A stretch of DNA of 64,000 nt, taken from contig OZ076416.1 in the NCBI GenBank assembly GCA_964187785.1, forward strand, positions 42,470,001-42,534,000. The letters are read 5' to 3'. Source of the DNA: Amphiscolops sp. MND2022 (taxonomy: Eukaryota). Both the position numbers and the translations under genes were made by a program. The notes beneath the pieces are model-generated. The model did no database searches. It saw only the letters and a program-made list of their open reading frames with translations, and was not told the origin of the DNA. This document shows positions 1-44,178 of the stretch, piece after piece (the stretch's first letter is position 1; each line of letters opens with the position of its first letter).

Positions 1-2310
1 CGATTTCGTCCCATTCCATGCCGCCAAAGTGCAACCCATGCAGGAGTTGTTGAAGAAAAACCAACACTTCTACTGGGAAGATAGTCATCAAGAAGCCTTT
101 GACTCGGTAAAGCGAGCCCTAGCAGACGCAACAACTTTAGCCGCGCCAAACGAGCAAGGAAGATTTGTGCTAGACAAAGACGCGAGCTCTGTTGCAATAG
201 CGGGCATCCTACATTAAGAGCAAGAACACAATGGAAAAACCATCCTGAGGCCCATAGTCTATGGCAGTAAATCACTAACAAGAACCCAGCTGAACTATGG
301 AGCTCCGAAGTTGGAGATGTACGCGGTATTCTACTTCGTCGAAAAGTTCCACTCATACTTAGCCGGGCGAGAATTCACGCTCCGCGTGGACAACTAAGCA
401 CTATCATGGTTAAAAACCTATTCAATGGATCAAGCCATGATCGGTCGTTGGATCGCGCGCCTAGACCAGTATCATTTCAAAACAGTCCACCGACCCCGCA
501 CACAACACCGCAACGTCGACGGACTCAGTAAAAGAACCAATGATTATATTCATCGCGAACAAATCCTCGAAAAACTGCCAGAAGTGAGCGAAGGGTTCAA
601 TTTCAGGTCACAAAAAGACTACAATGAACGTGCCACCGTACCATACTTTGAAAAGCATGGTCGTATCATCCCAGACCACCCTGATTTTCCACCGGAAGCT
701 CGAGCACGACTACCCTTACTGTAAATCTAAAAAAAAGAAACGGAAAAGCAATACCCTAGAAGAACCACCCGGAGATACTCCTTGGTATCCTCAAGTCCAA
801 TGGGAAACCACGCCAACCCTTGAAAAAGTTAAAAGACCAAACTGCATCTTGAGCATAACAACCAGAGTGCCTCCAGCACGAATAGATGTCACTGACCCAA
901 CCTTGAGCGAATTACCCATCGGGTGTCAAATACAAGCAGACGTCCTCAGGACCATTGGAACAGAACTCCACGAACACAACCTGACCAAATATGGTCTGGA
1001 AGATCGGCACCTGGCTCAGAACAGAGATATGCACCTCTTGGCATTAAAAACAGTTTATGAGAAATGAACCCTTAGAAGACCCCGTGTTTCCCTGATGAGG
1101 TGCAAGACTTCGCGAGACGCTACTATAACCAGAAAAAGGATTTACTCTTCATGAAATCTGACGACATACTCTCTGTCAATTACGTCCCTCAACAACGTGC
1201 ACTGCCCATGTATGATCGTCATGCCACAACTCTTCCAACACGAGATCCTATATCGAGCACAGAACGAATCCGGACATCAAGGCGTGGGAAAAGTGTTAGC
1301 AAGAATACAAGAGCGACACACCTGGCCGGGCATCAAAAGAGATGTTGTAAATCACATCAAACAATGCTTGACGTGCCAGCAAGCTAAATACCCAGCGGGA
1401 AACCCTTGTTATCCTTTGCAAACATAAACAGTAGCAATTTCAACGATCTGGTGCAGTTCGACCACCTGAAACTTTGTAAGACTGATTCGGGCAACACTGG
1501 ACTGTTAGTCATGATTGATCACTTCACTAAATTCGCAGACGCCATCCCATGCGCCCACGACGAATACGACGCGCAAACCACGGCGAAGATTAACTTCAAC
1601 AAATGGTTTGCCAGGCATGGCACCCCAGCACGAATGCAATCAGACAATGTGACAAACTTCACGGCTGAAATAGCTCAAGAATTAATGAAGGCATCGCAAG
1701 TCACCAAAGTGACGTCCACGCCCGCACATCCCAGAGGTAATTGACTCGTCGAACGCCAGAACAGAACCTTGCTTACCTTACTTAGAGTCTACACCTCACG
1801 CAGAATGCGAGACTGGGATGAGCATATTGACGGAGTGTTGGGAGCCTATAACTCCACTCGGCATGCCACAACAGGATTCTTGCCGTACATGCTCCAACAT
1901 GGCGCAGAAAAATCCATCCCACTATCATTCATATACCCAGAATTCGCAGCACGAGGATTCGACTCCAAAGAGGAATTCGTAGAACACCTGCTAGCAAGGC
2001 AACAAGAAATCCATGAATTAGTTCGAAGAAATACCCATCAAGCCCAGCCCAGGCAAAAGTTGAAATTTGACCGCCACCTCAAGGCAAAAGCACACGCCGT
2101 TGGCGACGCTGTTTGGGTTTTCTGCCACATAATCCCCAAGGGCGGCACCCGTAAACTGTTTCGCGCTTGGCCCGGACCCCACAAGGTAACCGATGTATTA
2201 CAAGACGGACGTCTCTACGTACTTGATACTGGCCAAAAGGTCCATTATGAAAGACTGAAAAAACACACACCAACCCATTGGACCAGACCAGAACGTAGCC
2301 ATAATAGCCG
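1..2310 (+). pseudogene. pol: Gypsy pol copy 1 (end of RT connection, RNase H, integrase); stops and frameshifts
   Basis: ORF pieces 29-217, 425-724, 1197-1427, 1406-1744 and 1769-2300 carry RNase H and integrase motifs; in-frame stops at 215, 394 and 1742. Confidence 0.92.
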
Positions 2311-5300
2311 CCCAGCTAAAGGAAGAGCTATGCTGAAATACCAAATACACGATCGCCGCTCGACCACTACCGCACTTCGCCAGAGAAAACGAAACCAAAT
2401 TGGCACCCATCCGAAAGGTAAAGACAGTTTCTCCAGTCCCAGTGGCTATCAATGTAGATGGCGTAGACGTGAAATTCGACGCAATAGTAGTCCTAGAAGG
2501 ACACTTCCCGCAGGGACAATACTTAGGCCGCCAAAAACTGCGATGCTACAATATCGGCGTCCAAGACGCACAGGGGAAAGCTAGGATAGACAAAAGGGCT
2601 TCACTGGTAGTTGCATTTGGCACCACCTTGCAAGAACCCATCCCGTTGTATGGCATCATAGACACAGGTTTGGGAGTCTCCATCCTCTCACTTTCCGAAT
2701 ACCAAAAGATCGCCTCCGCCCACACCTTGAGCCTTCTGCCATACGATATCCAACTGTTTGCAGCCAACGGCAAAACCATAAACACCATCGGTATACCCGA
2801 AAACGTAAACTTCTAACTATGTAGATCACTTGGGAGCAGAGGACTTCTTGTTAGGCCGCAACTTTCTGCGCACCTATAACGTCCTCGTCGACCTAGCTGC
2901 AATGAGAGTCACCATTGGAGGCCCAAAAGCTCCTCGCCATTTCAAACCAATCCATGAGGTTAGTAACCATGAACCTTCCCTAGTTGTTTCCACTGAAAAA
3001 GTAGTATTAGGCCCCTTTGAACGCAAACTAATCAGAGCCCAAGTAATCACTCAGGACGCCAACGAATACCTTTTCCGCAACGTAATGATACGCTCCAGCG
3101 GGGTTCACAAAAAGTGCTCATTTGTTTCAGAAGACACCCTGACATCGGTAGGGGAAGACGGCTCGGTTTTCCTAGCCGTAAGAAACCGGACAGCCAACGA
3201 AAATTTGACACTCCAAACAAGACTGTCCTGGGTAAGGCAGAGCCAACAACCTTTGTGTTTAGACCAATTCTGGTCGACCAAACTAATGAAACTTCACTAC
3301 CTTCTGTGGAACGTGTTAATAATATTAATATTGTTGACTTGAGTGACAGCAGTACTGAATTTAGCTCCTTTGCCCAAAATTTTTTATCCACCACTGAAAT
3401 GTCGGAAGAAGGCCTAACCGAAAATGAGAAGCGTGCAAGAACTGATCCGCAATTGTTGAAACCCATCCCAGGTCCGGATCTCTCCTGTCCTTTCCTTTTG
3501 AGGGGGGAGGGTGCAAGGAATCAACTTGCAAAAGTTTTGAATGAATATGATGTTCTCTTCATGAAACGTAAGGCCGACATAGGAAAGTGCACAATAGCCA
3601 AACACCGCATCGAACTAGAGCCAGAGGCTATTCCCCACAGGGAAGGCGCCAGGCGCATGTCTCCTGACAAAGCTGCTAAAGCTAATCAAGAAGTGAGAAA
3701 CTTACTAACCCTAGGCGTAATCCAACCTTCCTATTCGCCATGGGCTAGTGAAATAGTCATGGTGAAAAAAAAAGACAGGCGAACTTCGCTTCTGTTGTGA
3801 CTTTCGACCGCTAAACGACGTGACCGTAACAGACGCCTTCCCCCTGCCAAGAATAGACGAAAGTCTGTCAAGAATAAGCAAAGCAAAACTCTTCACGAGC
3901 ATCGATTTGGCGTGGGCCTTTTGGCAAATACCACTAAAGAAATGCGACAGGAGGAAAACTGCATTTGCCTGCGAACTGGGATTATTCGAATGGCGACGCA
4001 TGCCCTTTGGGCTCTGCAATGAATCAGCTACATTCCAACGATCCATTACAAGAGCCCTCCAAAAAATCCAGCAAAGACATGGAAGTGTCGTCATGGCCTA
4101 CATTGACGAATAGTAATCGCAACTGAAACAATCGAAGACCACATCGCCAGAATCAAAAGTATTTGAATGCCTCAGAGAGGCAGGCTTCAAAATGCGAGCA
4201 GAGAAATGCGATTTCATGCGTACGGAATCAATGTATCTTGGACGAGTGGTATCAGCCGAGGGAATCAAGCCGGACCCAGAAGCAGTAGTCAAAATCCAGG
4301 AATGGTTGCCCCCCCCCCTCCCGAAACAAGGAAGAACTGCAAAGCTTCCTAGAATTTGCCAACTATTACCGCGATTTCGTCCCATTCCATGCCGCCAAAG
4401 TGCAACCCATGCAGGAGTTGTTGAAGAAAAACCAACACTTCTACTGGGAAGATAGGCATCAAGAAGCCTTTGACTCGGTAAAGCGAGCCCTAGCAGACGC
4501 AACCACTTTAGCCGCGCCAAACGAGGAAGGAAGATTTGTGCTAGACAAAGACGCGAGCTCTGTTGCAATAGCGGGCATCCTACATCAAGAGCAAGAACAC
4601 AATGGAAAAACCATCCTGAGGCCCATAGTCTATGGCAGTATATCACCAACAAGAACCCAGCTGAACTATGGAGCTCCGAAGTTGGAGATGTACGCGGTAT
4701 TCTACTTCGTCGAAAAGTTCCACTCATACTTAGCCGGGCGAGAATTCACGCTCCGCGTGGACAACTAAGCACTATCATGGTTAAAACCTATTCAATGGAT
4801 CAAGCCATGATCGGTCGTTGGATTGCGCGCCTAGACCAGTATCATTTCAAAACAGTCCACCGACCCCGCACACAACACCGCAACGTCGACGGACTCAGTA
4901 AAAGAACCAATGATTATATTCATCGCGAACAAATCCTCGAAAAACTGCCAGAAGTGAGCGAAGGGTTCAATTTCAGGTCACAAAAAGACTACAATGAACG
5001 TGCCACCGTACCATACTTTGAAAAGCATGGTCGTATCATCCCAGACCACCCTGACTTTCCACCGGAAGCTCGAGCACGACTACCCTTACTGTATATCTAA
5101 AAAAAAGAAACGGAAAAGCAATACCCTAGAAGAACCACCCGGAGATACTCCTTGGTATCCTCAAGTCCAATGGGAAACCACGCCAACCCTTGAAAAAGTT
5201 AAAAGACCAAACTGCATCTTGAGCATAACAACCAGAGTGCCTCCAGCACGAATAGATGTCACTGACCCAACCTTGAGCGAATTACCCATCGGGTGTCAAA

Positions 5301-6667
5301 TACAAGCAGACGTCCTCAGGACCATTGGAACAAAACTCCACGAACACCACCTGACCAAATATGGTCTGAAAGATCGGCACCTGGCTCAGAACAGAGATAT
5401 GCACCTCTTGGCATTAAAAACAGTTTATGAGAAATGAACCCTTAGAAGACCCAGTGTTCCTTGATGAGGTGCAAGACTTCGCGAGACGCTACTATAACCA
5501 GAAAAAGGATTTACTCTTCATGAAATCTGACGACATACTCTCCGTCAATTACGTCCCTCAACAACGTGCACTGCCCATGTATGATCGTCATGCCACAACT
5601 CTTCCAACACGAGATCCTATATCGAGCACAGAACGAATCCGGACATCAAGGCGTGGGAAAAGTGTTAGCAAGAATACAAGAGCGACACACCTGGCCGGGC
5701 ATCAAAAGAGATGTTGTAAATCACATCAAACAATGCTTGACGTGTCAGCAAGCTAAATACCCAGCGGGAAACCCTTGTTATCCTTTGTAAACATAAACAG
5801 TAGCAATTTCAACGATCTGGTGCAGTTCGACCACCTGAAACTTTGTAAGACTGATTCGGGCAACACTGGACTGTTAGTCATGGTTGATCACTTCACTAAA
5901 TTCGCAGACGCCATCCCATGCGCCCACGACGAATACGACGCGCAAACCACGGCGAAGATTAACTTCAACAAATGGTTTGCCAGGCATGGCACCCCAGCAC
6001 GAATGCAATCAGACAATGTGACAAACTTCACAGCTGAAATAGCTCAAGAATTAATGAAGGCATCGCAAGTCACCAAAGTGACGTCCACGCCCGCACATCC
6101 CAGAGGTAATTGACTCGTCGAACGCCAGAACAGAACCTTGCTTACCTTACTTAGAGTCTACACCTCACGCAGAATGCGAAACTGGGATGAGCATATTGAC
6201 GGAGTGTTGGGAGCCTATAACTCCACTCGGCATGCCACAACAGGATTCTTGCCGTACATGCTCCAACATGGCGCAGAAAAATCCATCCCACTATCATTCA
6301 TATACCCAGAATTCGCTGCACGAGGATTCGACTCCAAAGAGGAATTCGTAGAACAACTGCTAGCAAGGCAACAAGAAATCCATGAATTAGTTCGAAGAAA
6401 TACCCATCAAGCCCAGTTGAAATTTGACCGCCACCTCAAGGCAAAAGCACACGCCGTTGGCGACGCTGTTTGGGTTTTCTGCCACATAATCCCCAAGGGC
6501 GGCACCCGTAAACTGTTTCGCGCTTGGCGCGGACCGCACAAGGTAACCGATGTATTACAAGACGGACGTCTCTACGTACTTGATACTGGCCAAAAGGTCC
6601 ATTATGAAAGACTGAAAAAACACACACCAACCCTTTGAACCAGACCAGAACGTAGCCATAATAGCCG
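2311..6667 (+). pseudogene. pol: Gypsy pol copy 2 (protease, dUTPase-like spacer, RT, RNase H, integrase); disrupted
   Basis: LYGIIDTGLGVSIL and FLLGRNFL (protease); WASEIVMVKKK, FTSIDLAWAFWQIPL, KTAF, LFEWRRMPFGLCN, VMAYID (RT); FVLDKDASS (RNase H); H2C2 and core integrase motifs, spread over several frames. Confidence 0.95.
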
Positions 6668-9030
6668 ATCCATATGTGGAGGAATCTAATGAAAAAATCA
6701 CCTCAGACATCTCCCGAGATTCATTTCTACCGGAACAACTCCCGGAGGCATCTTTCGAATTGGAACCAACCAGACCGGTTCCCCCGCGAACTATCCAAAC
6801 CCGCACACACTGCTCTACGGCAGGGAATCCCACGAAAAAGATTCAGTCACTTCGATTACCCATCTGACTCCGACTCGGAACCAGCAATAACAGAACCGCC
6901 AATCCCAGACCCAGCTCCCCAGGTGCTTTTTCCAGAACTCGACGACTTGGCGCCCCTATTCTCCGATCAAGAAGTTCAACCAGAGATGCTCACCGAGAGT
7001 TTGATACCATCACCCTCAGGGACATCAGCTCCATTTTTATCCAACCCATCGCTTACAGACACCCTAAGCAACATCCCCTTGTTTCCACCGAGTCAGTCAA
7101 GACCCTTAGCACAGGCAGAGCAGCCACAAAGGACCAATACCGAATAGGCGAGTCAGAACCCGGAAACATCCACACTCCCAGTCCAACGAAACGGTACAAG
7201 CGGATGGAGAAGACCATGAGATAGACCCCTTGGTCGCAGAAACCAACGTACCACTTCCTCTTGTAGGAGCGCAACATCTTCTCGCAAGCCACCGCTGCGG
7301 ACCAGAAAAGGCCTCAGAACGAGATTCTCTACTAGAGCCCAACCTGGAACTCACGATAGAGCCATGACGTTGCCTGAGATTCTTGAGAGCCCCTCATCTA
7401 CTCAATCCGGCCCACGCGGAAATGTTTCAACACAGGCACCACGATACCAACTGCGAGCAAATCGAGTACCACGTTATAAATGTGGAACCTGCGGTTCCCG
7501 TAACTGTACTTGCGTACGCCAGATCATCATCGAGCCTCCGAATCTTCGATTGGCTCGGGGAGCGGTGATCCCAGCTTGTGAACTCGCTCTGGCACGCACA
7601 CCTGAACACCCGCAACATGGGATCCTAGCCGTGCGAGCCCAGCATCAGGAACACGAACTCTCACCCATTATACGGCACATCTTCGTGACCGTGGAGAAGA
7701 CCTATACCAGTACAGAATCCGGGGTAGTGCCGCCTCTAGAACCCACGTTAAAAGCAATGCTGGACTCTTCCCCCTCTGACTGCCCTACTTACCGCTTTAA
7801 AGAATGGACTTCTAATGAACGTGGTGGACTGGAATTTACACTATCCGCTATCATTCCCCCGTTACCACCCTCGATCACTTTCGGAGAAGTGGATAAAGCG
7901 TGCACCAGTACACAGATGATTCGCTGCATCACTGCGCACCTATTATGGGAGAAGTATCAGGTGGTCCCTCCCCGGGTGACGTCTACCAACCTACCCACGG
8001 CTGGTGGCTCTTGGTCACTTCCCTCGACCACTCCTCCCTAGTTTACCCAACCACGCTATTGATATGTCTGGAAAACTTGCGCACCCGCGTAGAGGTAAAT
8101 GACACTCTCTGTTTCCACCTTGCCGACATCTACCGCGGAAAGTTTTTGAGTCAACATTGGTTACATTTAATGGCTATCACCTTCTGCCGACAAGCCAACA
8201 TCCACATCTTAGATCGATTAGCCTACACACCGGAAGCGCCAATCACTCCCCTCGAAGCCCTCTCTGTAATACACGACTGGTCATGCATCAACATGGGCGA
8301 CCGCCCCTTACGCCACACGGTATGGGAAGAGCGTCGAGCGATTTTCGAACACTTGACACCCCAGTCAATCGACATCAATGACGACGCTGCAGGAAAATGG
8401 CTCATAACGCAACCAAAAACCAGACCAAGCTACCTGCCCTGGATAACTTACTCCAACACGGATATCCTACAGGCCCCAGGCACCTTAGTGCTATGCTGTC
8501 CAGCAGACTTATTTTCTTACTCCGCAACAGCTCGTTATGTCATTCGCGAATATGGGCAAGAAAGCATATTCCGCCTGAAGCCATCAGTCGGCGAGGCCGT
8601 ACGCTTAGACCGCTCGCCTACTGCACCCTGGAACAATCAAAGTTTTCTCCTGCGTACAAGAGCCTCCAATAAACATCCGCTCCTGCATGAAACCCTACAC
8701 GCATGCCTCACGCATCTCCTACATCAACTCCAACAATGTCGCGTCACGCGATTTCACTTGCCCATCTATGACCCAGAACGATCAATCAACTTATTATCAA
8801 CTTGGTACGCCACGCTCCGCGATCACTTCACGGGTCATAACCTAGAAATAATTCTCCACGACCGCGTTTACGTTTCCATTGCATTGGTCACTTCGTCCCA
8901 TGTAAGGATCACGGACATTCCCTGGAACTGCAAGGCCAGAGGCCTTCCCGTTTTTTCTCCACCACCATTTCTCATATTATTTCCTTATGACAGAACACAC
9001 TCTAGCCCTTTTAACGATCGAGTATCATAA
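6668..9030 (+). pseudogene. Probable Pol C-terminal extension: Pro/Ser-rich linker, CxxC-x4-CxC motif and two tandem TARG1/OARD1-like macrodomains
   Basis: ORFs 6674-7147 and 7364-8041 share one frame; a frameshift near 7960 leads into 7900-9030. ITFGEVDKACTSTQMIRCI..PGDV..WLLVT..TLLICLENL and WITYSNTDIL..GEAVRL..FLLRT..TLHACLTHL align by eye with the TARG1 ITYVKGDLF..HCIS..GEV..YLITK..LQKSLEAM pattern. Confidence 0.68.
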
Positions 9031-9257
9031 TAAAGACCACCTTTTAGTCCTAAGCACTGTCCTTTCCAATTCAATACCCCTGTGTTTGTCCCGTCTATTT
9101 TCAGTCTTTTCACGATCTATCCTTTTATGTTCACTTGCAACTTGCTTTTCAGTTTTGTCCTGTTGCTTCACCCTTGCGCAGCTATCCTACATTGCACCAA
9201 CACCTTGCTTCGCCAATTTCGTTGTATCACCCCCCACTGCTATCCAACCCACCATCA

Positions 9258-12200
9258 ATGGATGCTTCTTCGCGCAATTGTATGCCCGCACCTACCACTC
9301 AACAAAACCAACGACAACGTGCTCCCAATTCCTCCACTACCAGCACCCCTACGTCTGTTGGCGAGGTCAATGGTCGAGTCGACCAGCTTGCCTTAGTTCA
9401 ACAAGCGCTACAAGATGGGGCCACCCCCACAATGATCGCTGGCTTTGCCATGATCATAGCCCAGATGCAAGCGCAAGCAGCGCTCCCAGAGGTTCTACTA
9501 ATCATCATCAGTAGCATAGGGCCGCTTGAGCGTTCCGCCACCTTCCGCGATGGAGCTTGGCATGGCTACACTCTGACTCATAACCTGATTGATCCACGCT
9601 TCCACATGATTTATGGAGAACCTACCAGGCCTCCCATGGACCAAGAACGATCGTTTAGAATAACCCCACCTACCATACAACCACTATTCCAAGCAACACA
9701 ACCCCCCCAATCGCAGACTGTGGCTCCTCCTCCGCCGATACAACCTACAACATTCAACTGCACCCTGCCCTTAGTTCCTCCTCCATTTTTGACACCACCC
9801 ATGCCCCTGGCATCTGAAAGCGTGCATTCACTCACACACTCGTCAACTAACTTCATGCTCCCTTCCGCCTTTCAGGGGGAGGGGTGCAAGTGAGTCCAAC
9901 CGAAAATGAACAAACCACAACAGAAGGACAGACAAGAGAAAATCGTCAAGGCAGAACGGTCACCTTCAAAGACTCATACGAAGAGTTGACGCCATTCTCA
10001 TCTATAAGCGAACCTCCGAGAAACGAACCTAGTCGCCTGATAGGCTTCCAGAAAGACCCCAAGTTGAAAAAACGTCAGCGGGAACAACAACGAACAGAAA
10101 GTAGAACCACCAATGCCCCAATAGACCTTCGAGATAAACTCAATGATAGAAAGAGAGACAGGGAACAAGGCGACCAATCGAATACAAGAGGAAACAGTGG
10201 AGTTCCAACTCCTTCTCCTAGTCATCCAGAAGCCAGGAGACAAAAGGAGACAAGAGAATTGCTCACCGCAACAGAAGTAAATCAATTAGACATAACTGCA
10301 AGAGACGCAGTGCGTCTCCAACGAGAAGTTCCGAAAACAGCTGATGAAGAGAATCCCCCAAGACCAAAATTTGAGAGTGCAACCAGTAAAGGAGACTATG
10401 CAACACAACGCACCATAGAGAAGGCCAACATTAGAGTACTCTACACAAGGCCAGTTAAACAACCGATATTCACAAATGATGGAACTCCGCCATGGTTCGA
10501 ACGTCTCCGAAGGGATTTACAGAGAGATGACTCCACTTACCTCCAACCCCTGCAAACCATTAGCGAGCAACTTACCCGTCAAAGGCCTGGTAGATTCGGA
10601 GAAAACCAACTGCAAACTAAAAACTACGCTAGAGACCCAATTACTCTACTGCCAATGGGAAAAGATTTGCTAGAGAAAACGAGGATCGCACTCTTTGTCG
10701 ACTCGACAATCAAATCCTCGTACAACGCCAATAACACCCTGATGGATGTCAGATTGATGAATATGCCCTGCACTTCTCTCAGCAAGATGACAGAAGTAAC
10801 TGACAAAATGTTCACGCCAGAGGCGGCAGAAACAATACCCCTATCCCCAATGCTAGTATACTCAAATGTGATTGATCACCTCGCCTTGCAACGAACGCTG
10901 AGGTATTTTGATATGCAACACAACCGCTTCACAGAAGGATTCGTAACTGACGAAGTAGTAGCCTATGTGGAAACGATGTCTAACATCGCCAACAGGATGA
11001 GAAACAAAAAGCCAAAAACAGATACCGTGTTTGTGTCACCACCTCGGGTACATACATCTCCCAAGAGCATTGCGACAATTCTTGTATCTGGTGCTAGAAG
11101 CTTCTTATGCAAGGGACTTGCGTTTTTATATTGTAGCGCTAAACCTCAGAATCAACGTGACAACATGGCGCCCTTGTGAAGCCTCTTACCCTGCTTTCTT
11201 AGCAGAAATATCTAAGGCCGTACAAGGATACACTGGATATAGGGGAAAGTCGCAACTTCTAGTCGACGAGGCAACAACTTATGACTATGGGATGCAAATG
11301 TCGTCCAGATTTTTAGACGGAAATGGTGTGCGCCATGTGAATGATCCTAATGAACAAGAGCGCAAGCACCTTGTGAATAATTTATGGTACGAACGGAGGG
11401 ACGAATCCACTCTAGACGATAAGACCCTTGATCCAGAGTTTCACGAAGAGCTACTAGCTCTTTTCAAGGTGACGGAGACAATCAAAATGGAGCGAATAAA
11501 CACCACAGTATTTCCAATAGCTGCTATATCAACAGACGTGCAACCCGGAATGGTATCGCCCACACTGACACTACTGATAGTGATGGCAAGGAACCTGGCA
11601 AAACAAAACGAGACGGAACCCAGGCATACCTACCAAACATGGCACCAAGCCTTGCGCGAGACTTTAAATCAAGTCGCTCTGCGGCTTGAAATTCCGTTCC
11701 CGGTACTCCTATATAACATATCCTTATTCTGGTTTCCCAGTTTCGTACAAGCTGAAAATTACTTGGACGACCAACAGACGCGCTTATATATGGAAGCTAT
11801 GCAAGGAGCCACGATAAGGGAATTCTTGGGATATTTGATGGCAATCGGGCTACACACAGTGTACAAAGGACCTTCTGGCCTTTCCCAAAAACTCATATTT
11901 GATAAAGGAAGCTTGTCCTCTTCAGCTTCCTAGTGTATGCTCAGAACCAAAAGAATTGGCTACAAGCAATCCTATACGCCTTGGACCCAGCGGGTCCCTA
12001 ACAGTTAAAAAAGCAACTGGAGCTCAACATCGAAGCCCTCCTCGCGTGGATCTACTCCACCTGGGTCAACGTTGCAGGAATAATGAATCCTCTGAATGAG
12101 AACCCTGCAGTCAACAGAGAACCCAACCATCTCCCAGGTTTCTTGTTTCCCTCGCAGATTGCCACACTCATGTTGGTAGAAACGGAAGACCTGATACCCC

Positions 12201-13308
12201 TAATCGCCCCCATACTTCACACCCTGGCCAATCTTCGGTGCAGTTATGGGGTTGCGATACCCGACGCAGGTCCTGCGAGTAGCCGCAAATCAGTATCATC
12301 AAAGACAAGAAACAAGTGGAACACAACTTCGCATCGATTATTCGAGCACGTGCACGATGCGCCCTCCCAATGCCCATGGAGTTCCACCCAATCACATGGC
12401 TACACATTCCCCTAGATCCAGAGACAGGCGCGGCGGACTCTTTCGCAAACTGGAATACAGAAGTAGTCCCGAGAGTTCTAGCCACAATAGTCCAGAGACT
12501 GGGCGGCAGAAAACGAGGTGAAGAACCCACCGGGTTGCGATACCCCTATGTTTGCGACACATCAAGAATGTACTGCGATAGAACCAGCCCTCGTTCATGC
12601 CCAGCTCGCATTCTGAACGCAACGACGTGCTGGTCAAAACCAGAATTGGTAGACTTGGCTGTCCACCAAATGTCCCTGCGCATGAAAGCCAAAATAACTC
12701 TGGTGGGCAAGGAACCGAACAAAAAGACCTTATCAATCAGCACAGAGGTCCCTAGCAATTCGCGCGCTGCGCTGGAAATATGCCTAAATCTGCACAGCAG
12801 ACCAAAACAGCAAGGACAGTCGGTTGGCGAAGATTATGCACGTGGAATCCAAATCTTCAAGAGTCTATTTTTGCAATATGGTCATCCAGAATAAGCCAAA
12901 AGTCTATCCGACTTCCCACAGGGAAGTACTACTGACCAAGACGCTACAACAATTGCGACTGCCCCTGGCAGTTCACAACAGTTATCAACAGGCATGCTAT
13001 CCTCGAACAGAACCGAAACACGAATGGAAGAAGATCAAGAAGGCTCACCCATTATTGTCGATCCTAACGACGAGCCAATGACGGACGACAACTTCATCCT
13101 ATCGGATGGAGCAACTTCTGCCCAAGACGAATCCGAAGCGGGAAAATCGCAAATGGATGCAGCCAACATTGAATCCGAGCTAAATAATCTACTAACTATA
13201 GACGACTCTGTTCAATATCCTCCCTTGGTGGCGGATCCTTCTGCAAACCCAGAAACAGCAGTCACGTCAACCATCCCTGAGCCACAGTTGAATCAAAATA
13301 AGGAATGA
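9258..13308 (+). pseudogene. Large accessory ORF of the Gypsy element (~1350 codons if frameshifts are repaired), unknown function, with an SGNH-like region at ~10670-11230
   Basis: Abutting or overlapping same-strand ORFs 9135-9893 (ATG at 9258), 9884-11179, 11031-11933, 11899-12099, 12083-12415, 12316-12894 and 12994-13308 tile the interval almost without gaps. Confidence 0.6.
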
Positions 13309-13871
13309 AGAAGCTACCTACGCTAACCAAGTAGAAACTAGACTGAGAAACATTCCAGTTACTTTCAAAAACATGAAAACCTTGTTTTGTTTAAATGGCC
13401 TCTTGTCATTTACGTTCAGTTGGTGCCATATACATTGCATCCTCAAGCGATATTCACTATATACATTATATTTTGAAAGTACTCGTTTAAATTTTTGTTG
13501 ATCCGCAATGCGTTACTGAGCCCTGAAACAGTGTCCACCCCCTCCAACCTGACAATTCACTGTTGCTACCAAGATCCAAGTGTTGTTACTCATGCAGTGT
13601 AAGAGCACTTTTAAAAAAAATTTTAAACCCAGACTGCAAATAGAATTTTAAAATCAACTGTCATACTTGTAATACTATTCAATACTCTTAGACTTGTTAA
13701 AGCCTGTCAACGCTAGTGCGAAAGGAAATAATGAGAAAAAAGTTAAAAAAAAACGAAAGAAAAAGAAATGAAAACAATAGGGTCTTTTCTGAGTGTCTAG
13801 CCGATTCTCATCGCAGTTACCCTTTGGGTATGATTATCCTCTCGTTTGCCGAGGACGACAAACTACGGCCC

Positions 13872-13879
13872 GGGGAGGA
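13872..13879 (+). other. Polypurine tract of the Gypsy element
   Basis: GGGGAGGA immediately 5' of TGTAACG. Confidence 0.8.
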
Positions 13880-14584
13880 TGTAACGTCAGCCACCGGCAT
13901 GGCAAAATTTCGATGAAAATTTCGAAACGTGCGATATCAAAACAGCACATTCAAAATGGCCGACCTAGCAAGTACCAAGACGTGAACGAGAGAAAGCAGA
14001 GCAAGAAAGAAAGCACGTGAGAAAAGATCAAAAAAAGAAAGAAGAATGCGATGGAAAAGAAGGAGAATTCAGCAGGAGAAAAGATCAACCCAATCGGAAT
14101 GTTGTGCCATCTCTCCGAGAAGACACCCAAAAGTGAAGAATGATGCCAGAGGCCGAGTTGATGAAGAACCCAAAACTGCAATGTAGTTGGGGCTTATCCC
14201 CGTATTTTGTTGTCATTTATCAAGTATTTGGCTGATGTTAGACCTACTAGGTCTCAATTTTAGATCTTATTCATCAAATACAATGTATTTTAGCTAGACA
14301 ACTTTTTGGACCTCAGAGGTATGTAGGAAGTCGTAGGAACGTGCTAGAAACCTTAGGACACGTTTTTACAGGCTTGTGGGGCGTGTCCGGACTTTGAGAG
14401 TGCCGGCACGTCGCTTCGGAGCTCTAACTAGAGAAGCCTCCTCAGACGATAGAAAAGTCCCTTTAGGAGACCATTTTGGGATTAAAAACTAGTGTCTAGG
14501 TATGTAGTAAGACAACCGTCTCCTGTTTAAACATCCTAGGTATTGTCTCTCTTCCTAAATGTGCATCGCTAGCCAGTCGTTACA
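13880..14584 (+). repeat. 3' LTR of the large Gypsy element (705 bp)
   Basis: Starts TGTAACG after the PPT and ends CGTTACA (7-bp terminal inverted repeat). The partner LTR is outside the window. Confidence 0.83.
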
Positions 14585-15180
14585 CTTTTAAAAGGAGACC
14601 CAAAAAACAGAACGCACAAAATAACTACTTTTCCTATTCAAAACATGGGTCCTTCTGTTAATTCCCCCACAGTAAGCGCGGAAGTTTTAATTCACTACAA
14701 GTGGTGTATCAGCGATGAGTTTCAGTTGCAGTTAAGAGTTTTAAAATACTGCAATTTGATTTGTTGTTACTATTAATTCAATCAATGATAATTTCACTCG
14801 ACCACTTAACTGGGTGTCGTAACCTTCATCACTCTCATACGAGTTTACTGAACTCTCTGTAAGGTGATTATTATTTTGCGACCCCACATTTTAAAAATGG
14901 GGGAGGAAAATAATGATCTGTGACGCGTTATTTTTTTCCAAATTTTGCCAAATCTCCACCGTTTGATTACTTGACTGATTTATATAGCTTCCAGTAACTA
15001 AAATAGTCAAGTAACTAAAATAGCATATAGCGGGAATAATATCTAACGTCAAAAAAGGGATAAGATCTAAAGAGAATAGGATACAAATTCAGGGCGAGAA
15101 TAAGATCTGAAAGGAATAAGATCTAAAATCACTAAATTTTAGATATTCTTCTTTGGATCCTATTCCCCCTTCCAAAGTAG

Positions 15181-18977: not shown

Positions 18978-20748
18978 TGTAACGGCAAGCTCTGGTACAG
19001 CAATATCAACCGATTTTGCAACTTTGACATGTTCAGAAATTTTGTCAAAAATTCTAATCCGATGTGTGACGTGGCACTGAGCATGTGATTGCTCTTTTCG
19101 CTGTTTCGATTGCTCTTTTCACCTCGCATTAGGCTCAAATGACCCACAGAAGCTCCAAAACGGAATTAACAAACTATCACTGTATTGTGATCACAATGAT
19201 ATTTCTGTGAATATTGAAAAGACCGTGGTACAGGTGTTCCAAAATGCTGGTCGCAACAGACAGATAGACTTCTTTTACAGAAATATCACCCTAAGTTATA
19301 CGAAATGCTTCATCTACCTAGGTCTTGCTCTTTCAACCAGACTCAGCCCGCATCCCCATATAGAGCGAAACATCAAAAACGTCAGGAAGAATATTGGGGC
19401 TTTGAACAAGACAACACCGATAAGAAAATTTGACTTCGATTCAGCCTCTCGTCTGCTCAAATCCGTTTTTATCCCCACTGGATTTTATGGACTCGACTGC
19501 TTTAACCCTAACTGGACTATTCGCGAACTATCCGACCAGTCCTATAAAATTCGCGGTACTTTCTACAAATACTGGGCAAGCCTCCCTATTTATACGAGTA
19601 ACCATCATCTGACGGACCTAATTGAGAATTCTGACCCACTGAGTATTAAAACTGCCCCAATCGGTACAAGAAAATTAATCGGCTTATTATACTCAGACGC
19701 TCTTCACAAGAAATTATGCTGTACCACCAAATGTTTTCGTCAACCAAAACCCACAGAAAGAGTGCCAAACCCCCCTACCTGCATCTGCAAACTATGTGGT
19801 GACAACTTATCACTGTTACACCCCACCACATGTACAGCTTTTCCCCCGAATACCCCCCCCCCCCCAATGGAAAGAATTAAAACACTCTGGTTCAACTCGT
19901 ACAGTTTAATCCCGATGATATAGTTATATGTACTCCTTTTGTCTCCCTTGATGTGATTATAGTTATGTCCTCTGGGTCTTGATGCTTTTATTTTATTTTA
20001 TTTAGTTCATTTTTATCTCATTACATAAATTACTCACTGTTTTTTAATCTGTCATTATGACGTAATTTACTGTTTCTCTCTCTCTCTCTCTCTTTTCGCT
20101 GTTTCCACGAAATTGGCAGGTACTTCGACAACAAAGAGCAAGAACGAGCAAAAACACGGGCGCGCCGCCATGAAAGAAGCCAGAGACGGCAAGAACATCC
20201 GAAAATAGACTCTTTTTGAGGTGCTAACACCGGTTTTATCGACTTTCAGCATTATACTACCCTATGTAGTGGAAACCGTAAAAATGAGTCTTTTCGCCTA
20301 AAGATCCTTGTTTGGTGCTTGGAGCCCCTGCGCCCCAGCTTTTTAGCTGTGTGGTTTGCCCTATTCGTGCCTGTTTTCATGTATTTTCAGTGATTTTGGC
20401 TGTATTCAGTAGCGCTAGCGCTAGTTTAGGTCTTATTCCCCAATTTTAGATCTTATTAACATGTCACCCTGGAACTGGAAATTTACCTTATTCTTGGCAT
20501 TGTTTTTATATGCTAGTTAAACGGTGGTCTTTAGAGAGTCAGAAAGATGCCCGTTACTATTAGCAATCAAAGACTAGGACCGGTTGGACAGTATTCGTCG
20601 AAGCACCCGCGGCCCCTGGACGTATTTCACCCCTGGAGGCAAAATGGATCTGTGGCGATGGGCGCCTGTCCCGAGCGAATCACCCATTCCTGCAGGTTCC
20701 TCCACCTCTGTTAACGTGTTAAGCGACCGATAACTGCTTGCCGTTACA
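18978..20748 (+). repeat. 5' LTR of the non-autonomous element, interrupted by a LINE fragment
   Basis: TGTAACGGCAAGC...GCTTGCCGTTACA (13-bp perfect terminal inverted repeat); 18978-19107 plus 20106-20748 is colinear with 27404-28176. Confidence 0.93.
19108..20089 (+). mobile_element. 5'-truncated non-LTR retrotransposon (RT C-terminus plus CxxC..H..C finger) with a (TC)n tail
   Basis: ORF 19207-19923 has NIEKT..F, FIYLG, IPTGFYG and CKLCGDNLSLLHPTTC; flanked by a 16-bp TSD CTCTTTTCGCTGTTTC (19092-19107 and 20090-20105). Confidence 0.85.
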
Positions 20749-20763
20749 TGAGACCTCATTTTT

Positions 20764-20780: not shown

Positions 20781-21869
20781 TCGCTTCCGATTACTGCCCT
20801 ATTATATGGTTTTAAAATTTCCGACCCCCTGGTATTGGACGCCAAGAACGGTTGGACTCTGGAAGGAGACGTTTACCCAGAGTTTTTCCAAATTTTTTAG
20901 ATGATAGGACATTATATTTTGGTATTTTTCCTGTATTTCGGGGGATTTTCCCGAGTACCTTTGGTATATTTCGATAACAAGTACTTGTTGACAGATATCG
21001 TCTAAAATTGTAAGGTTCCCATCAGCGGGTCCTCTTTTTAGAAGCGTAGTGGACAGTAGCACGTCGCTACTGGTGTTTAACAGGTTTTTCTAGCTGTTTT
21101 CAGTGATTTGCGCTTATGTACGAGAGGTGAAGTTGATGGTTGAACCATATTCCATCCGACTGATAGATGAGCTGAAACGAGTGTTCCCGACTCTCCTTTC
21201 CCATTTCTCGTGGAGACGTGCTAGAGGGATGGTTTTTGGTGGAAAGGTAGAACAAGTGCTGACGTTGCCGACGGTCCAAACTGTTTCTCTCTAGCTGGTC
21301 TGGGTGTTGAGAAAAAAGACGACGAAAGTACCACCCCTCATTCCAGAAGTATCAGTTTTTCGGAGTATGGTATGAAAAAATTTTTAGATTGCGTATTTTT
21401 TGACGGGGAATCATTTGTGCATGCTAGTTTTACCCTGTTGCAACTAAGTGTGTGCTTTTGCACCTGTTTTCAGTGAAAAAAGTGCGATTTTTAGTGCAAA
21501 AGTCGCAAAAACGTGATTTTTGGCATTTTTGAGTACTTTTCTTGGTACGAGCGCGAGCGCTCGAAGTATCAGCCACAGCAGTTGCAAAAATGAATAGAAA
21601 GCAGCCCAAAACCTTGAGGGTTATGCTACATAATGTAACGACAACCAGAAAGGCCGTTGGAGTCCTTTTTGAGACACATTTTGCATGAAAAAACCCGGTT
21701 TTTGGCGAAATTGGCAAAAAACCACTACGAAATGCCACTGGGAGAGTGCTGGATTGTGATGTAATCGCCTCTTCCGTGCTGCTATTAGTTTGGGGCACAC
21801 TCCACAGTACCGAAAATAGGATTTAAGAGAGTTTGTAACGTTTTCTTGGTGAGAACAGGTCGAAAAACC

Positions 21870-22415
21870 TTGATTTTTGGCCAGTTTCAGGAGTGCCAGA
21901 GTGCATCATTAAAACCTCTGAGGCACTCAGTGTTTTCGAGACCTGGGAGCCCGCGCGCTCTCATTTTCTGTTTTTATAGTAAAAATAACGCATAGTGGTG
22001 AAAACCGCGTGCAAAAATTCCTTTTCAGTGTTGAGAAAAATTGAAAAACGCTGATTTTTAGTCAGTTTTAGGAGTGTCTGAGTATACAATTAAAACCTCT
22101 GGGGCACTCAGTGTTTTCGAGACCTGGGAGCCCGCGCGCTCTCATTTTCTGTTTTTATAGTAAAAATAACGCATAGTGGTGAAAACCGCGTGCAAAATTT
22201 CTTTTCAGTGTTGAGAAAAGTTGAAAAACGCTGATTTTTAGTCAGTTTTAGGAGTGTCTGAGTATACAATTAAAACCTCTGGGGCACTCAGTGTTTTCGA
22301 GACCTGGGAGCCTGCGCGCTCTCATTTTCTGTTTTATAGTAAAAATAACGCATTGTGGTGAAAACCGAGTGCAAAAATTCCTTTTCAGTGCTGAGAAAAG
22401 TGGAAAAACGCACTG
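21870..22415. repeat. Tandem repeat, ~180-bp unit, about 3 copies
   Basis: CCTCT..GCACTCAGTGTTTTCGAGACCTGGGAGCC recurs at 21915, 22096 and 22276. Confidence 0.95.
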
Positions 22416-25123
22416 AATTTGATCAATTTTCCACAAAACCGGACTGTCTCTGAGCTAGGGTCGGGTCATCGATTCCTGAACCCTAGCCAAAAGGTGGTTG
22501 CATTTTCGTAACCACCACAAAAATTAACGTTAGTGCCGAAAATTTGATGAGCGTATCGGTCACCAAAGTCGAGAAAAGCTCTCTGACGTTTCGACTTCAG
22601 AGAAGCGTAAAAGGACCGAAAAAATCCAAAACTACTGGACTGTCAGCGCCTTATACCCAACGGGCACAACCAATTGAGGGTTTATCCCAGTGCTACGGAT
22701 AGTGGGGCAACACGTTGGTCCCATTTTGCCCGCCGTATCACTTTCTGAGGTGATCCTCTTGGTCGATTTGTGAAAAAAGTAGTCAAAAACAGTGTTTTTT
22801 CGTGTACAACGTACATAGTTTGTCGAAACCTTAAATAAGCGCTCGCGCTTCAATTCGACCATTTTAGTGGCATTGTAGGTGCCCACTGGCATAAACTACC
22901 AAGTTTGGTGCCGATCTGTGTGATACTTGTTGAGAAAATAGGAAAAACGCGGCGCCCAGAAAAGTGCGCAAAAAGGCAGTTTTTTCTTAATTTTTCCAAG
23001 TAACCCGGGCACCTTAGCCGACGGTGAGGCTATATTGCAGCCCACCATTGTAACCTATGCTAGTTCCTACGTTGCTGCAGAGAATTTGAGCTTGCTAGCT
23101 CCTTCCAGTGGACCGCAATCTTGAAAAAGACGTGAAAAACAGTGTAATTTGGTACATAGTGGTACCGCACGTCTGTACCTAGGTGAAACTGTGTAGAAGG
23201 GGTGCAGCTCAATTCTGTGTTCATTTTCGTAAACCTACGTGTACCTAAGATCTGCTGGTCAATTTTGGGCTGGATACGGCGCTTCCAGTGCACACACGAG
23301 CCTCTGGAGAGTTGTTGTGCGATTTTTGGAAAATCCAAAAATGCTTTGAAATTCTTCCTGTGGGTGACTGGAGACTTTTTGCCCTAAACCAGGTTAATTT
23401 TCTAGCCCAGTGTGCTTGTGGGAAACAGCTGTGCAAATTTAAACAGCCTACGAGCCTTAGAACGTGTTTTGAAAAATCTTGGACGTTGAAAAAACATCAA
23501 TTTTCTTAAGTCCTCACCGAGACGAGCAGAGGGCCAAATCCTTGAGGAGACCCCCTGCAAGCCTACCAGCGTCTGTTTTACTATTCTAACAGCGTGGTTG
23601 GTGCCCACTGGCAGCGCCTGCCAAGTTTGGGGTCAATTGGTACTGTATCTGTTGAGAAATTGACTAAAACAAACTGCACAAGAAGGTGCGCAAGAAGGCG
23701 AATTCTACGAAGTCTTGTGGGATTGCCTGAACACCTTATTCAAAGAGTGGGGCCAAATTGCTGCCCACTATCGTAACCAGTGCAAGCTTATCGTATTGTT
23801 GCCGAAAAAACGAGCTTGAGAGCTCTTTGCTGGTTGCCGGAATCTGAGTTGACGCGTGAAGAACACTGCATATTGGAACACGGTGATACCGAAGGTCTGT
23901 ACTGTGTTGAAACTTCACCTAGTCATCTCAGCACAAATCAGCTATTCTTCCCTTGTACCTCAACTCACGTGGGACTGTGTGGTTGATTTTGAAGCCGATC
24001 CTGCGTTTCTAGCGTTAGCGGTAGCCTCTGGAGTTTTTTTCAAGTGAAGCTGAAAAACCCAAAAAACATCTGAAAAACCTCTGACCTGTGACTGGATCCT
24101 AATACCCCAATTCTGGACTCACTTTTTGGGTCAGTGCATCAATCTGGAAGTGCTGTATACCTTCCAGCACGCTACAACCCTTGGAACTTATTTCGACGCT
24201 TCTCGGACGTGCATATTCATTGTGTCTGTCAGAGGTCTCATCGAGACGAAAACAGGGAAAGTGAGAAAAAGTCATTTCTACGTGTTGGAAACCTGTGGAA
24301 ACCCCTAGTTTGAACTCCCAGCAGTTAGTTCATTGCTGTGCGTGTGATATTTGATCAGTATCGAGTGGGCTGCTTTGCTGGATCATAGCATTTTATTACT
24401 TGAAGTTGTGATATCCTGTGTATTGTAACGAATTGGATCATTTTTTCGGAATTGTCGGCGCACCTTATTGGGAAGTTGGGATTACATTGCCCTGGACTAT
24501 TCTTAGTAGTGTCATTTGGTGCACCGTTGCTGAAAAAGTGAGCTCGAGAGCTCAGCACTGTGGACGAGAGTCTTTGATTGCATGTGAAAAATCGTGTCAA
24601 TCGAGACACGGTGATACGGAACGTCAGTATCAAATCTAAATCTTGCCCAGTGGTCTGAATTCTCAATGGTTGCTACTGTAGTGAAGCTGGCTATACGTGT
24701 GATCGCGTGACCAATTTTGAGCCCGATACCACGTTTCCAGCACTTGTAAAAGCCATCTGAGTGATTTTCGAAAAAAGATGAAAAGTCCTAAAATAGTTGA
24801 AAAAGGCTCTAGCTTGGAGCTGGAGGCAATTATCAGCTACGGAAGGTTATTTTTCTGACTTGTGTGACTGACAAATTGTGCCGTGTCATTTTGTACCCAG
24901 TACGATTGATAAAACTAAATTTGACTTTGTTCAGACACACGTCTTGAACAAAATTCAAAAAACACCAGAAAATCTATCATTGTAAATCTTCAATACTTCC
25001 GCTGTACAGGAGGCAAACCCAAAAAGCCTTCATTTTCCAACGGAAGGGACCAAATAGACCTTCCTGGGTGCAAACGAGGCAAATCCCACGGTTCAAAAAA
25101 ATTGCCGGCAGGGGTCATAAATT

Positions 25124-27403: not shown

Positions 27404-28176
27404 TGTAACGGCAAGCTCTGGTACAGCAATATCAACCGATTTTGCAACTTTGACATGTTCAGAAATTTTGTCAAAAATTCTAATCCGATGTGTGACGTGG
27501 CACTGAGCATGTGATTGCTCTTTTCGCTGTTTCCACGGAATTGGCAGGTACTTCGACAACAAAGAGCAAGAACGAGCAAAAACACGGGCGCGCCGCCATG
27601 AAAGAAGCCAGAGACGGCAAGAACATCCGAAAATAGACTCTTTTTGAGGTGCTAACACCGGTTTTATCGACTTTCAGCATTATACTACCCTATGTAGTGG
27701 AAACCGTAAAAATGAGTCTTTTCGCCTAAAGATCCTTGTTTGGTGCTTGGAGCCCCTGCGCCCCAGCTTTTTAGCTGTGTGGTTTGCCCTATTCGTGCCT
27801 GTTTTCATGTATTTTCAGTGCTTTTGGCTGTATTCAGTAGCGCTAGCGCTAGTTTAGATCTTATTCCCCAATTTTAGATCTTATTCACATGTCACCCTGG
27901 AACTGGAAATTTACCTTATTCTTGGCATTGTTTTTATATGCTAGTTAAACGGTGGTCTTTAGAGAGTCAGAAAGATGCCCGTTACTATTAGCAATCAAAG
28001 ACTAGGACCGGTTGGACAGTATTCGTCGAAGCACCCGCGGCCCCGGGACGTATTTCACCCCTGGAGGCAAAATGGATCTGTGGCGATGGGCGCCTGTCCC
28101 GAGCGAATCACCCATTCCTGCAGGTTCCTCCACCTCTGTTAACGTGTTAAGCGACCGATAACTGCTTGCCGTTACA
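27404..28176 (+). repeat. 3' LTR of the non-autonomous element (773 bp)
   Basis: Uninterrupted copy, TGTAAC...GTTACA. Confidence 0.95.
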
Positions 28177-28736
28177 TTGTATTGGCACTTTGGTTGAGGA
28201 AAATCTAGTAATTTCATCAGTGTATGCATTAATTGACTACAGGATCCTAATTTTCCTTTTATGGCTCCAGGCTGACCATACTCTGGAGCATATATGGTGC
28301 AGAGTATGGTCAGCCTGGAACCATAAACTTTTATGGTCCAGAGTATGATCAACCTGTTTTTGTGTTTTTGTATGGGAGGGAAACCCGGGACGTTTTCAAT
28401 AATTTGTTTTGTTTCTTTCATCTTCTCTTTCGTTTATTTTGCCCAATGAAGACCACGTTCTCATAGTGGGTTCTGTCACATGAGACTTTTTAAGAACTGA
28501 GAATTTAGCAGACTGCTTCATAATTCTCAACATAACGACTTCCATTCTAAATACTCAAGTACCGTCTCCGTGATATTGAATGTTACTTCTTGTATTATTT
28601 TCGTTTTTGGGATGTTGCATCTCAGTTTCAAATGATTTGTCTCACACAACGAGACAGATGTCAAGCTGAACGGTTGTGCTTTTCGTCGCTGCAGTTGAAA
28701 CGCATTCAAGGCCAAATTTCAAAGCTGAAAATAAAC

Positions 28737-29431
28737 ATGGCGGACTTAGTGCAAGAGCTGAATAAACTTGGCAAAAAATACAGCCTGAATTACAAGAATT
28801 TCTTTCGAAATTGATTCAAAATCTACAGGAAAAAGACAAAACTATTGAAACCCTGGAACAAAAAGTTGCGTATCTTGAGACATCTGTTAATCGAATTGAG
28901 CGTTATACATCCAAGGACTCAATTATTATTCAAAACTTACCTCTTATCTCCGGAAACAACTTAGTAGCTGATGTTATCAACTTTTTCTCACGAGTCTTCC
29001 AAACTCAGGTAAATGAACAAGACCTTGTAGCATGTCATTTTCTGGGACAAGTCAAGGATATCAAATTCCCACCCCCTGCAATAGTCAAGTTTGTCCATTT
29101 TTGGAAAAAAGATAGGATATGGGCAAGGAAATATTGGCTCAGAAATTTCGGAAACCCAGTTAACAATAAACCTGTTTTCATGCATGAGAGGCTGACAAAG
29201 AGGGACAGGGACTTATCGGATTATGCAGCTGGATTGGGCCTCAAAGTGTCTTCGAAAAACAGTGCTCCAGTGGTGCTCCTGAAGGACGGACAGCATACAA
29301 GGTCTCATTTCATTGTTGATGAAACAGATGCAGACGAAATTCTTGCAAGTGGCAAGGCTATAGTGAGAAAAAGTGCCGCTACTGAAACTCCACGCGAACC
29401 AAGAGCTAAAAGACCGCTTCCTATGGATTAA
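28737..29431 (+). pseudogene. LINE ORF1 (coiled coil + RRM/CTD, L1-transposase-like), one frameshift near 28810
   Basis: LEQKVAYLETSVNRIERY..SIIIQNLP..DLVACHFLG..PAIVKF..VFMHERLT. Confidence 0.8.
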
Positions 29432-29674
29432 CCCAATATGCTCTCAAACGTGGATATTACAAATAAACTGAAAGAGTACAAGCAGGCTTCTGATGCAGAT
29501 GGCTTAGAAAACTTTATTCAAAATTTAATCGGTTGTTCGCCCCCACTGAAAGTAACTGGATTAAACGAAAGTGAAAATGGCCAAAAGAAGTGAAATGTTA
29601 GAAAGCATTAACAGCGACGGAGTTGCTTATTTCAAACTATAAAAACTAGCAACCCAAGCAACTCCGAAGAGGCA

Positions 29675-44130: not shown

Positions 44131-44178
44131 GGAATTGAGGGAAGGTTGTCAGGTCAGTTATATGTACAATTCGATTAT

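Follow-up and report, generated by a model that had tools for sequence, protein, structure and literature searches.

A broken copy of a conserved, uncatalogued third gene behind pol in a Ty3/Gypsy-type retrotransposon from Amphiscolops sp.

Introduction

To our knowledge, the extra open reading frames (ORFs) of long terminal repeat (LTR) retrotransposons are usually env genes or small. In Errantivirus/Gypsy elements, the env gene follows pol as ORF3, and its product has a signal peptide, a furin site, a Cys-rich ectodomain and a C-terminal anchor. The present work concerns a third gene without these hallmarks, here also called ORF3, which lies behind pol in a Ty3/Gypsy-type element of Amphiscolops sp. 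MND2022 (GenBank assembly GCA_964187785.1, contig OZ076416.1, positions 42,470,001 to 42,534,000 of the forward strand). This whole 64,000-nucleotide stretch is referred to as the window, and all positions given below are positions within it.

The closest described systems are of several kinds. Bdelloid Vesta LTR elements carry a non-env ORF3 of ~1.3 kb that encodes a GDSL/SGNH esterase whose invariant catalytic residues are intact (PMC5408684, Rodriguez, Kenefick, Arkhipova 2017). The ORF1p esterase of the long interspersed nuclear element (LINE) ZfL2-1 floats with liposomes despite active-site mutations (PMC3905857, Schneider et al. 2013), and the OSK domain of Oskar, which has an SGNH-like fold without the catalytic residues, binds RNA (PMC5785220). 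In C. elegans, the Cer1 element produces CERV, a non-env accessory protein that is made from a spliced mRNA and acts as a nuclear RNA-export factor (PMC10309623). Plant Retand elements have a pol-to-3' LTR region of 2.9-6.6 kb with extra ORFs in antisense orientation (TRP28) (PMC11963269). A term search of a paper on errantivirus/Gypsy env genes (PMC13524379) gave no match for esterase, macro or acoel.

Results

ORF3 is intact in natural relatives of the window copy

The interval from 9258 to 13308 on the plus strand is a broken copy of a real, conserved and uncatalogued third gene behind pol, encoding a non-envelope accessory protein of ~1,380 amino acids (aa). In tblastn alignments, intact natural proteins were colinear with the whole of 9258-13305 in six frame segments (~9258-9890, 9860-11125, 11046-11915, 11918-12217, 12225-12290 and 12292-13305), and the damage to the window copy amounted to five frame changes, in-frame stops at 11999 and 12892, and a gap of ~38 codons near 12290. 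Among intact relatives, P0097 (1,382 aa) is the closest, with 62-82% identity per segment; the short segment beside the gap is 44% identical to P0097, and its alignment extends past the segment. Because the nearest intact relative reaches only 62-82%, the window's own subfamily is missing from the intact clusters. The chance of an open frame of 1,360 codons at this composition is p ~1e-29.

Relatives were sought among longer proteins with residues 150-442 of the second ORF3 piece as the query, and 8 of 1,065 candidates were returned, five of which are 1,277-1,429 aa long. The 8 matched clusters total 1,151 members, and 27 of the 108 cluster members listed are open throughout at 1,341-1,448 aa. 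A preliminary description of this DNA had proposed an undescribed accessory protein of a giant Gypsy lineage, encoded by an ORF of ~1350 codons between pol and the 3' LTR and visible as seven same-strand ORF pieces that tile 9258-13308. The tiling is present and colinear with the intact proteins, but the pieces number eight, with two extra stops and one gap; the long frame exists unbroken in the natural copies; and the protein is indeed undescribed within four family libraries, the PDB, the ESM Atlas and the open literature. The lack of a long ORF and an insertion private to this copy had been named in advance as grounds for giving up the gene, and neither was found: the ORF is unbroken in natural copies, and the gene is present again in at least three close subfamilies and several remote lineages.

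Full-length subfamily representatives are 47-84% identical, near-sister pairs excepted. The conservation profile over the full-length protein is block-wise, with variable low-complexity linkers and a variable tail, and this is, as far as an alignment can tell, the pattern of purifying selection on the protein. A profile of 12 natural ORF3 copies was searched against 1.84 billion proteins and matched 469 of them at E<=0.001. Among the 150 profile matches listed, 21 have less than 45% identity to whichever of six full-length references is nearest, and some of these are merely decayed copies. The remote lineages (P0283, 1,187 aa; P0282/P0248; P0216/P0297; P0247/P0269/P0294; P0190; and P0242) share 23-37% identity with the first row of the A3 alignment and keep the same motif order. 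In a core-domain tree of 17 proteins, long branches separate the remote lineages from the close group, and the deep joins are unsure. P0283 holds the candidate SGNH domain and the C-terminal region described below in one chain, and P0248 (N-terminal part) and P0234 (C-terminal part) come from contigs of equal size, 23,006 bp. Since ORF3 has been kept open at 47-84% identity across subfamilies and at 23-37% across remote lineages, the elements likely need it.

Contig size served as a proxy for linkage between Pol and ORF3: 5 of the 92 contig sizes in the Pol lists match one of the 102 in the ORF3 lists, and all five matches pair like subfamily with like, compared with control overlaps of 1 and 2 with 58 LINE-ORF1 contigs. 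The enrichment is weak, and the subfamily concordance is suggestive. A second relative of ORF3 or of the Pol tail was not found elsewhere in the 64-kb window, and no DNA context for an ORF3 relative was found among viral contigs or among metagenome contigs. Genome contigs yielded a single case, a remote ORF3 relative on an 816-bp contig (L023:1-816) of a Bacteroidota metagenome-assembled genome record, where it is likely a eukaryotic carry-over.

Domains of ORF3 and searches of known families

Four parts of the protein can be recognized on the plus strand. A small conserved N-terminal domain (9350-9650; P0097 residues ~31-130) stands out in the conservation profile and is traceable also in the remote P0294. 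A basic stretch (17% K+R at P0097 residues 336-460) precedes the core, which holds a candidate SGNH-fold domain of ~200 aa at 10663-11255, placed by hidden Markov model (HMM) coordinates and motif counts and crossing one frame break. The large conserved C-terminal region of ~490 aa (11500-12950) is likely mostly helical; it belongs to no known family and contains both the most conserved block of ORF3 and an internal hydrophobic segment. The protein ends in a poorly conserved and likely disordered acidic tail without a membrane anchor (12950-13308; 22% D/E in the last 130 aa of P0097).

ORF3 and its relatives gave sub-threshold matches only in Pfam, NCBIfam, PHROGs and PADLOC, and profile searches of the PDB gave no credible match. 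One PDB profile match, to designer pentatricopeptide proteins (E 4e-9), was rejected, as its score is summed over artificial repeats of which single stretches reach E ~7 or worse. In the ESM Atlas, the top scores of 0.81 went to unnamed clusters and lie within the chance range, and the long core (residues 440-1250) had no usable match. No internal repeat was found within ORF3, and two sub-threshold miRNA matches in Rfam were disregarded. No description of the ORF3 family was found in the open literature; Repbase, Dfam, GyDB, subscription journals and supplements lie outside this scope and may hold an uninformatively named entry.

The core has motifs in SGNH order and lacks the catalytic His

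By eye, P0097 residues ~460-670 form five hydrophobic strands that alternate with amphipathic helices. On this pattern, strand 1 is followed by xDS[T/S], strand 3 by NxxDH and strand 4 by SPPG, while RPxxxSY precedes the last helix; these four core motifs stand in the order of the SGNH hydrolase motifs. Residues were counted in a 99-row alignment (A6), using only rows with a residue at the column in question. Block I has the GDS-like Ser (D 28/29, S 28/29), with V or M at the first position and Gly in 1 of 29 rows, and the candidate column for block II has the Gly of SGNH hydrolases in just 3 of 39. The candidate block III, NxxDH (N 33/36, D 33/36, H 30/36), is without Gly and has xxDH in place of the D of GxND; in local hhalign alignments, its Asn was not placed on the GxND of SGNH proteins. 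At the column of the catalytic His (block V, DxxH), Arg is found in 35 of 39 rows and His in none, followed by P in 32 of 38; P0078, which is outside A6, carries His at this position. In local mode, hhalign matched the domain to 10 SGNH proteins of bacteria and phages, annotated or homologous, over 158 columns from one end to the other, placing VDST on GDS and RP on GxHP in a register that is not significant. A GDSL-lipase cluster appears at rank 6 in the ESM Atlas (score 0.79), which serves as a lead only.

Taken together, the order of the motifs tips the balance toward an SGNH fold for the ORF3 core. Given that fold, ordinary esterase chemistry has probably been lost. ORF3 does not qualify as an SGNH hydrolase, as it has neither the block V His nor a significant profile match.

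A near-intact LINE on the minus strand of the same window (41427-44784) comprises an 886-aa reverse transcriptase (RT) ORF and an upstream ORF. This ORF1 (44179-44784, minus strand) has 33 relatives and SGNH-like motifs (GTS, GFND and DGVY) that were missed by Pfam; its profile aligned weakly with bacterial SGNH enzymes (E=0.002) and did not match the ORF3 domain.

ORF3 lacks the hallmarks of an envelope protein

The first 30 aa of ORF3 are 57% P/S/T/Q and 13% aliphatic or aromatic, and by composition and hydropathy they are not signal-peptide-like; an upstream exon is possible. A furin motif is absent in 8 of 9 full-length relatives. The C-terminus has the acidic tail where an anchor would be expected, and the only strong hydrophobic 19-mer lies ~400 aa from the end (~12190-12250 in the window). 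This segment is conserved in 9 of 9 relatives with Kyte-Doolittle values of 1.83-2.22 and holds two prolines; a buried helix and a membrane segment are both possible. The relatives have 5-11 Cys in ~1,400 aa and 7-13 NxS/T sequons, and no envelope family or solved fusogen was matched in the library and PDB scans. The preliminary description, which had overlooked the internal hydrophobic segment, had excluded an env gene because a signal peptide, furin site and C-terminal transmembrane anchor are missing. For a conserved furin site and for the other two features this holds, with the internal hydrophobic helix and the possible upstream exon as caveats.

A candidate splice acceptor precedes ORF3

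Pol and ORF3 are separated by a pyrimidine-rich spacer (8910-9257, plus strand), with 66% C+T compared with 48% in ORF3. Within it lies a candidate splice acceptor, TTTCAG|TT (9147-9154, plus strand, AG at 9151-9152), which is in frame and 37 codons 5' of the ORF3 Met. In the window and in both P0003/P0065 and P0070/P0080, which together represent three subfamilies, the in-frame peptide FQF[S/C]P precedes the shared Met by exactly 37 codons, and the intervening residues are largely unrelated. TTTCAG|TT occurs twice in window positions 1-14698. The equal distance of FQF[S/C]P fits a conserved splice acceptor, and we lean toward the view that ORF3 would be spliced at 9151-9152 into a subgenomic mRNA. 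A donor-like site at ~9888 that had been pointed out earlier is unneeded, because intact proteins pass through this point uninterrupted, with no missing segment, and the residues there differ between subfamilies.

The host element

The window is eukaryotic, repeat-rich DNA with several LINEs, and its positions 1-14699 are the 3' part of a Ty3/Gypsy-type LTR retrotransposon. A broken pol (2310-6630, plus strand) with protease, RT, RNase H, a ~240-aa insert and integrase is colinear with the intact relatives P0373, P0403 and P0406, in which the domains were assigned with Pfam; the order, from protease through RT and RNase H to integrase, is of Ty3/Gypsy type. Pfam also placed Gag zinc knuckles upstream of pol in P0373. 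Intact Gag-Pol relatives are 2,974-3,178 aa long in a single frame and were colinear with 2310-8889 in tblastn alignments. The ~240-aa insert (~4900-5600), which separates RNase H from the integrase zinc finger, is conserved in the intact copies and has no Pfam match. The RNase H-to-integrase part of pol is present a second time as an internal tandem duplicate (1-2310, plus strand), identified by self-blastn and by tblastn of Gag-Pol, which is 98.3% identical to 4372-6667 and is joined at ~2310 to the region just upstream of the protease. As most inactivating changes are common to both copies, the duplication is likely younger than the decay.

The integrase is followed by a Pol C-terminal tail of ~750 aa (6630-8910, plus strand), which is fused to it in the intact copies, as seen from colinearity with intact Gag-Pol. 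Downstream of ORF3, the sequence contains a polypurine tract (PPT), GGGGAGGA, at 13872-13879 and a likely 3' LTR of 820 bp at 13880-14699, from TGTA (13880) to TACA (14699), both on the plus strand; the LTR ends are putative because the partner LTR lies outside the window. From the end of integrase (~6630) to the PPT, the element measures 7.2 kb, made up of 2.3 kb of Pol tail, 0.35 kb of spacer, 4.05 kb of ORF3 and 0.56 kb of 3' untranslated sequence. The long distance reported in the preliminary description was thereby borne out, with 6630-8910 belonging to the Pol tail. Summing the parts suggests ~16-17 kb for the full element. Immediately 3' of the putative LTR, at 14700-14712, AG followed by TGGTGTATCAG resembles a primer-binding site, and a truncated element that follows may share the 3' LTR.

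The Pol tail consists of a low-complexity linker, RGRP repeats, a Cys cluster and two alpha/beta domains (~7860-8220 and 8440-8890). An hhalign comparison of the two domains scored 21.2, which was reached by 0 of 40 shuffles, and they are possibly duplicates of each other at the sequence level. By eye, both resemble macrodomains (TARG1-type), and this serves as a lead only. Against 12 phage macrodomains, a set seeded from T4 Tk.4, which itself matches OARD1 structures, domain 2 scored 17.3 in hhalign (E=0.046; 2 of 40 shuffles reach the score) and domain 1 scored 9.9 (28 of 40 shuffles). Macrodomains were not enriched in the HMM ranking of the Pol-tail domains, and the tail had no macrodomain match in Pfam, PHROGs, PADLOC or the PDB.

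Other repeats lie downstream of the element. A second LINE (28766-32513) has a coiled-coil ORF1 and endonuclease-like and RT-like ORF2 pieces. An A/C-rich, element-like stretch of opposite skew on the minus strand (~36000-40000), opposite which the other strand holds an ORF of 153 codons (36748-37209), did not match the ORF3 and Pol-tail profiles. The window also contains a 660-bp dispersed duplicate (20090-20749 and 27518-28177), an 866-bp tandem duplicate (58814-60541) and two tandem arrays with units of ~160 bp (55916-56695) and 181 bp (21847-22430).

Discussion

A possible role for ORF3

ORF3 is best read, with a probability of roughly 0.4, as an intracellular accessory protein made from a spliced mRNA, in which a His-less SGNH domain helps to place the particles or genomic RNA of the element. 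A spliced subgenomic mRNA would yield the protein; the domain would bind membranes or RNA and not cleave esters; and the large C-terminal region would act as a scaffold. With no envelope involved, Gag-Pol particles or genomic RNA could in this way reach membranes or germ-line cytoplasm. The targeting role is proposed by analogy with ZfL2-1, which binds liposomes even when active-site residues are mutated, and with Oskar OSK, which binds RNA.

Several results weigh against this reading. The 158-column SGNH register has E=0.15, and other 200-aa windows of the same protein align as well; its score was reached by 2 of 40 column shuffles, and in global mode the register was lost. When scored with the domain HMM, 25 SGNH proteins did not come out ahead of 61 decoys (p=0.74 and 0.94), and ORF3 had no SGNH match in Pfam, NCBIfam, PHROGs or PDB profile searches. 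It should be noted that the positive control, LINE SGNH against bacterial SGNH, is weak itself (E=0.002), and therefore these tests have low power. The SGNH-like part makes up ~15% of the protein, with the remainder unexplained, and the Ser, the Asn and the Asp-His pair are kept as strongly as catalytic residues would be, as expected of an enzyme whose His has moved. With regard to splicing, the acceptor does not rank among the best 12 of the 393 YAG sites scored for pyrimidines, an open stretch of 37 codons has p=0.39 by chance, and the acceptor is known from translated 5' extensions alone, in copies whose gene call starts upstream.

The conserved residues could instead belong to an active SGNH-type hydrolase or acyltransferase, with the Ser as nucleophile and either the His of NxxDH or the near-invariant Arg replacing the canonical His; such an enzyme might act on lipids by remodelling them, or remove acyl groups from proteins of the host or the element. 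These residues are retained in the proportions given above down to 23-37% identity, and the bdelloid ORF3 (PMC5408684) and LINE ORF1 (PMC3905857) esterases retain theirs as described. However, the His of NxxDH is replaced by Asp in the P0283 lineage and by Tyr in P0190, the block II Gly is rare and the SGNH fold itself is putative; we consider an active enzyme unlikely.

ORF3 might also be a nuclear regulator like CERV of Cer1 or Rev, serving genomic RNA export or protection or countering silencing, with the likeness to SGNH incidental or used for RNA binding. A spliced accessory protein is required for genomic RNA export in the C. elegans LTR element (PMC10309623), the genomic RNA here would be ~16-17 kb long, and the basic region, the acidic tail and the candidate acceptor are in keeping with this role. 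On the other hand, the library scans gave no link to CERV or to nucleic-acid-binding families (CERV itself was not aligned), and a strongly hydrophobic segment is conserved, which leaves a nuclear role with a minor share of our confidence.

With every SGNH profile test weak or negative, ~85% of the protein outside the candidate domain and residues 440-1250 without a usable match in the ESM Atlas, ORF3 could have a novel fold and role unrelated to SGNH, such as a new kind of structural or scaffold protein. This explanation is improbable, since four motifs stand in SGNH order and spacing and the conserved residues fall at the active-site positions of that family.

Still less probable is an atypical envelope or surface protein that receives its signal peptide from an upstream exon and spans the membrane with the internal hydrophobic segment. 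ORF3 lies where env would be expected, the pyrimidine-rich spacer before it holds an in-frame motif resembling an acceptor, and ORF3 has the conserved hydrophobic 19-mer and the sequons. The low Cys content, the near-absence of furin motifs, the lack of any match to an envelope family or solved fusogen, the ~400 aa with an acidic end beyond a segment that holds two prolines, and the long P/S/T/Q-rich and charged stretches all speak against it.

Finally, a nested insertion or passive host fragment, private to the badly decayed window copy and without a function in the element, can be given almost no weight, because natural copies carry the ORF unbroken with block-wise conservation and the gene recurs across subfamilies and lineages, to which the five size-matched contigs add a little (controls 1 and 2).

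A more far-reaching proposal, which we regard as a long shot, is that Gypsy elements of 16-17 kb form an old radiation that has escaped cataloguing, in which a 1,400-aa pseudo-esterase scaffold replaces the envelope, guides particles across membranes or into germ cells, and is coupled to a tandem macrodomain-like Pol tail that counters host ADP-ribosylation. If true, this radiation would give LTR elements a third route of transmission and counter-defence, relying on neither env nor a described accessory protein. With more than 1,100 sequences, ORF3 and its relatives make up a protein family that was missed by four family libraries and the PDB. If the SGNH reading is true, ORF3 adds a large and probably non-catalytic form to the versions of this fold that retroelements have captured repeatedly, and a natural His-less variant makes the question raised by the esterase papers, catalysis or membrane/RNA targeting, testable.

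Comparison with known systems

Like Errantivirus/Gypsy env genes, ORF3 follows pol and is likely made from a spliced subgenomic mRNA, and the env hallmarks are missing from it. The long pol-to-3' LTR region is also found in Retand elements, whose antisense ORFs differ from the single 4-kb sense ORF3 found here. By description, CERV of Cer1 is similar in being a non-env accessory protein of an animal LTR element that is made from a spliced mRNA, as is likely for ORF3. The OSK domain of Oskar, likened by description as well, differs in belonging to a host germ-plasm protein, and ORF3 retains the Ser and the Asn. ZfL2-1 offers a retroelement-borne SGNH fold with catalysis-independent membrane binding as a functional model; however, it is a non-LTR element with its esterase in the ORF1 position, joined to a coiled coil and active.

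Compared by description, the closest known system is the GDSL ORF3 of bdelloid Vesta elements. Both are non-env third ORFs behind pol with an SGNH-type domain, which is putative in the ORF3 described here. At 4.1 kb, the present ORF3 is ~3x as long, has Arg at the His site and encodes ~1,150 additional aa that are unassigned, and by these features it is set apart from the Vesta gene as described. If the assignment of the fold holds, ORF3 may work, by analogy, like the Vesta ORF3 and the LINE esterases.

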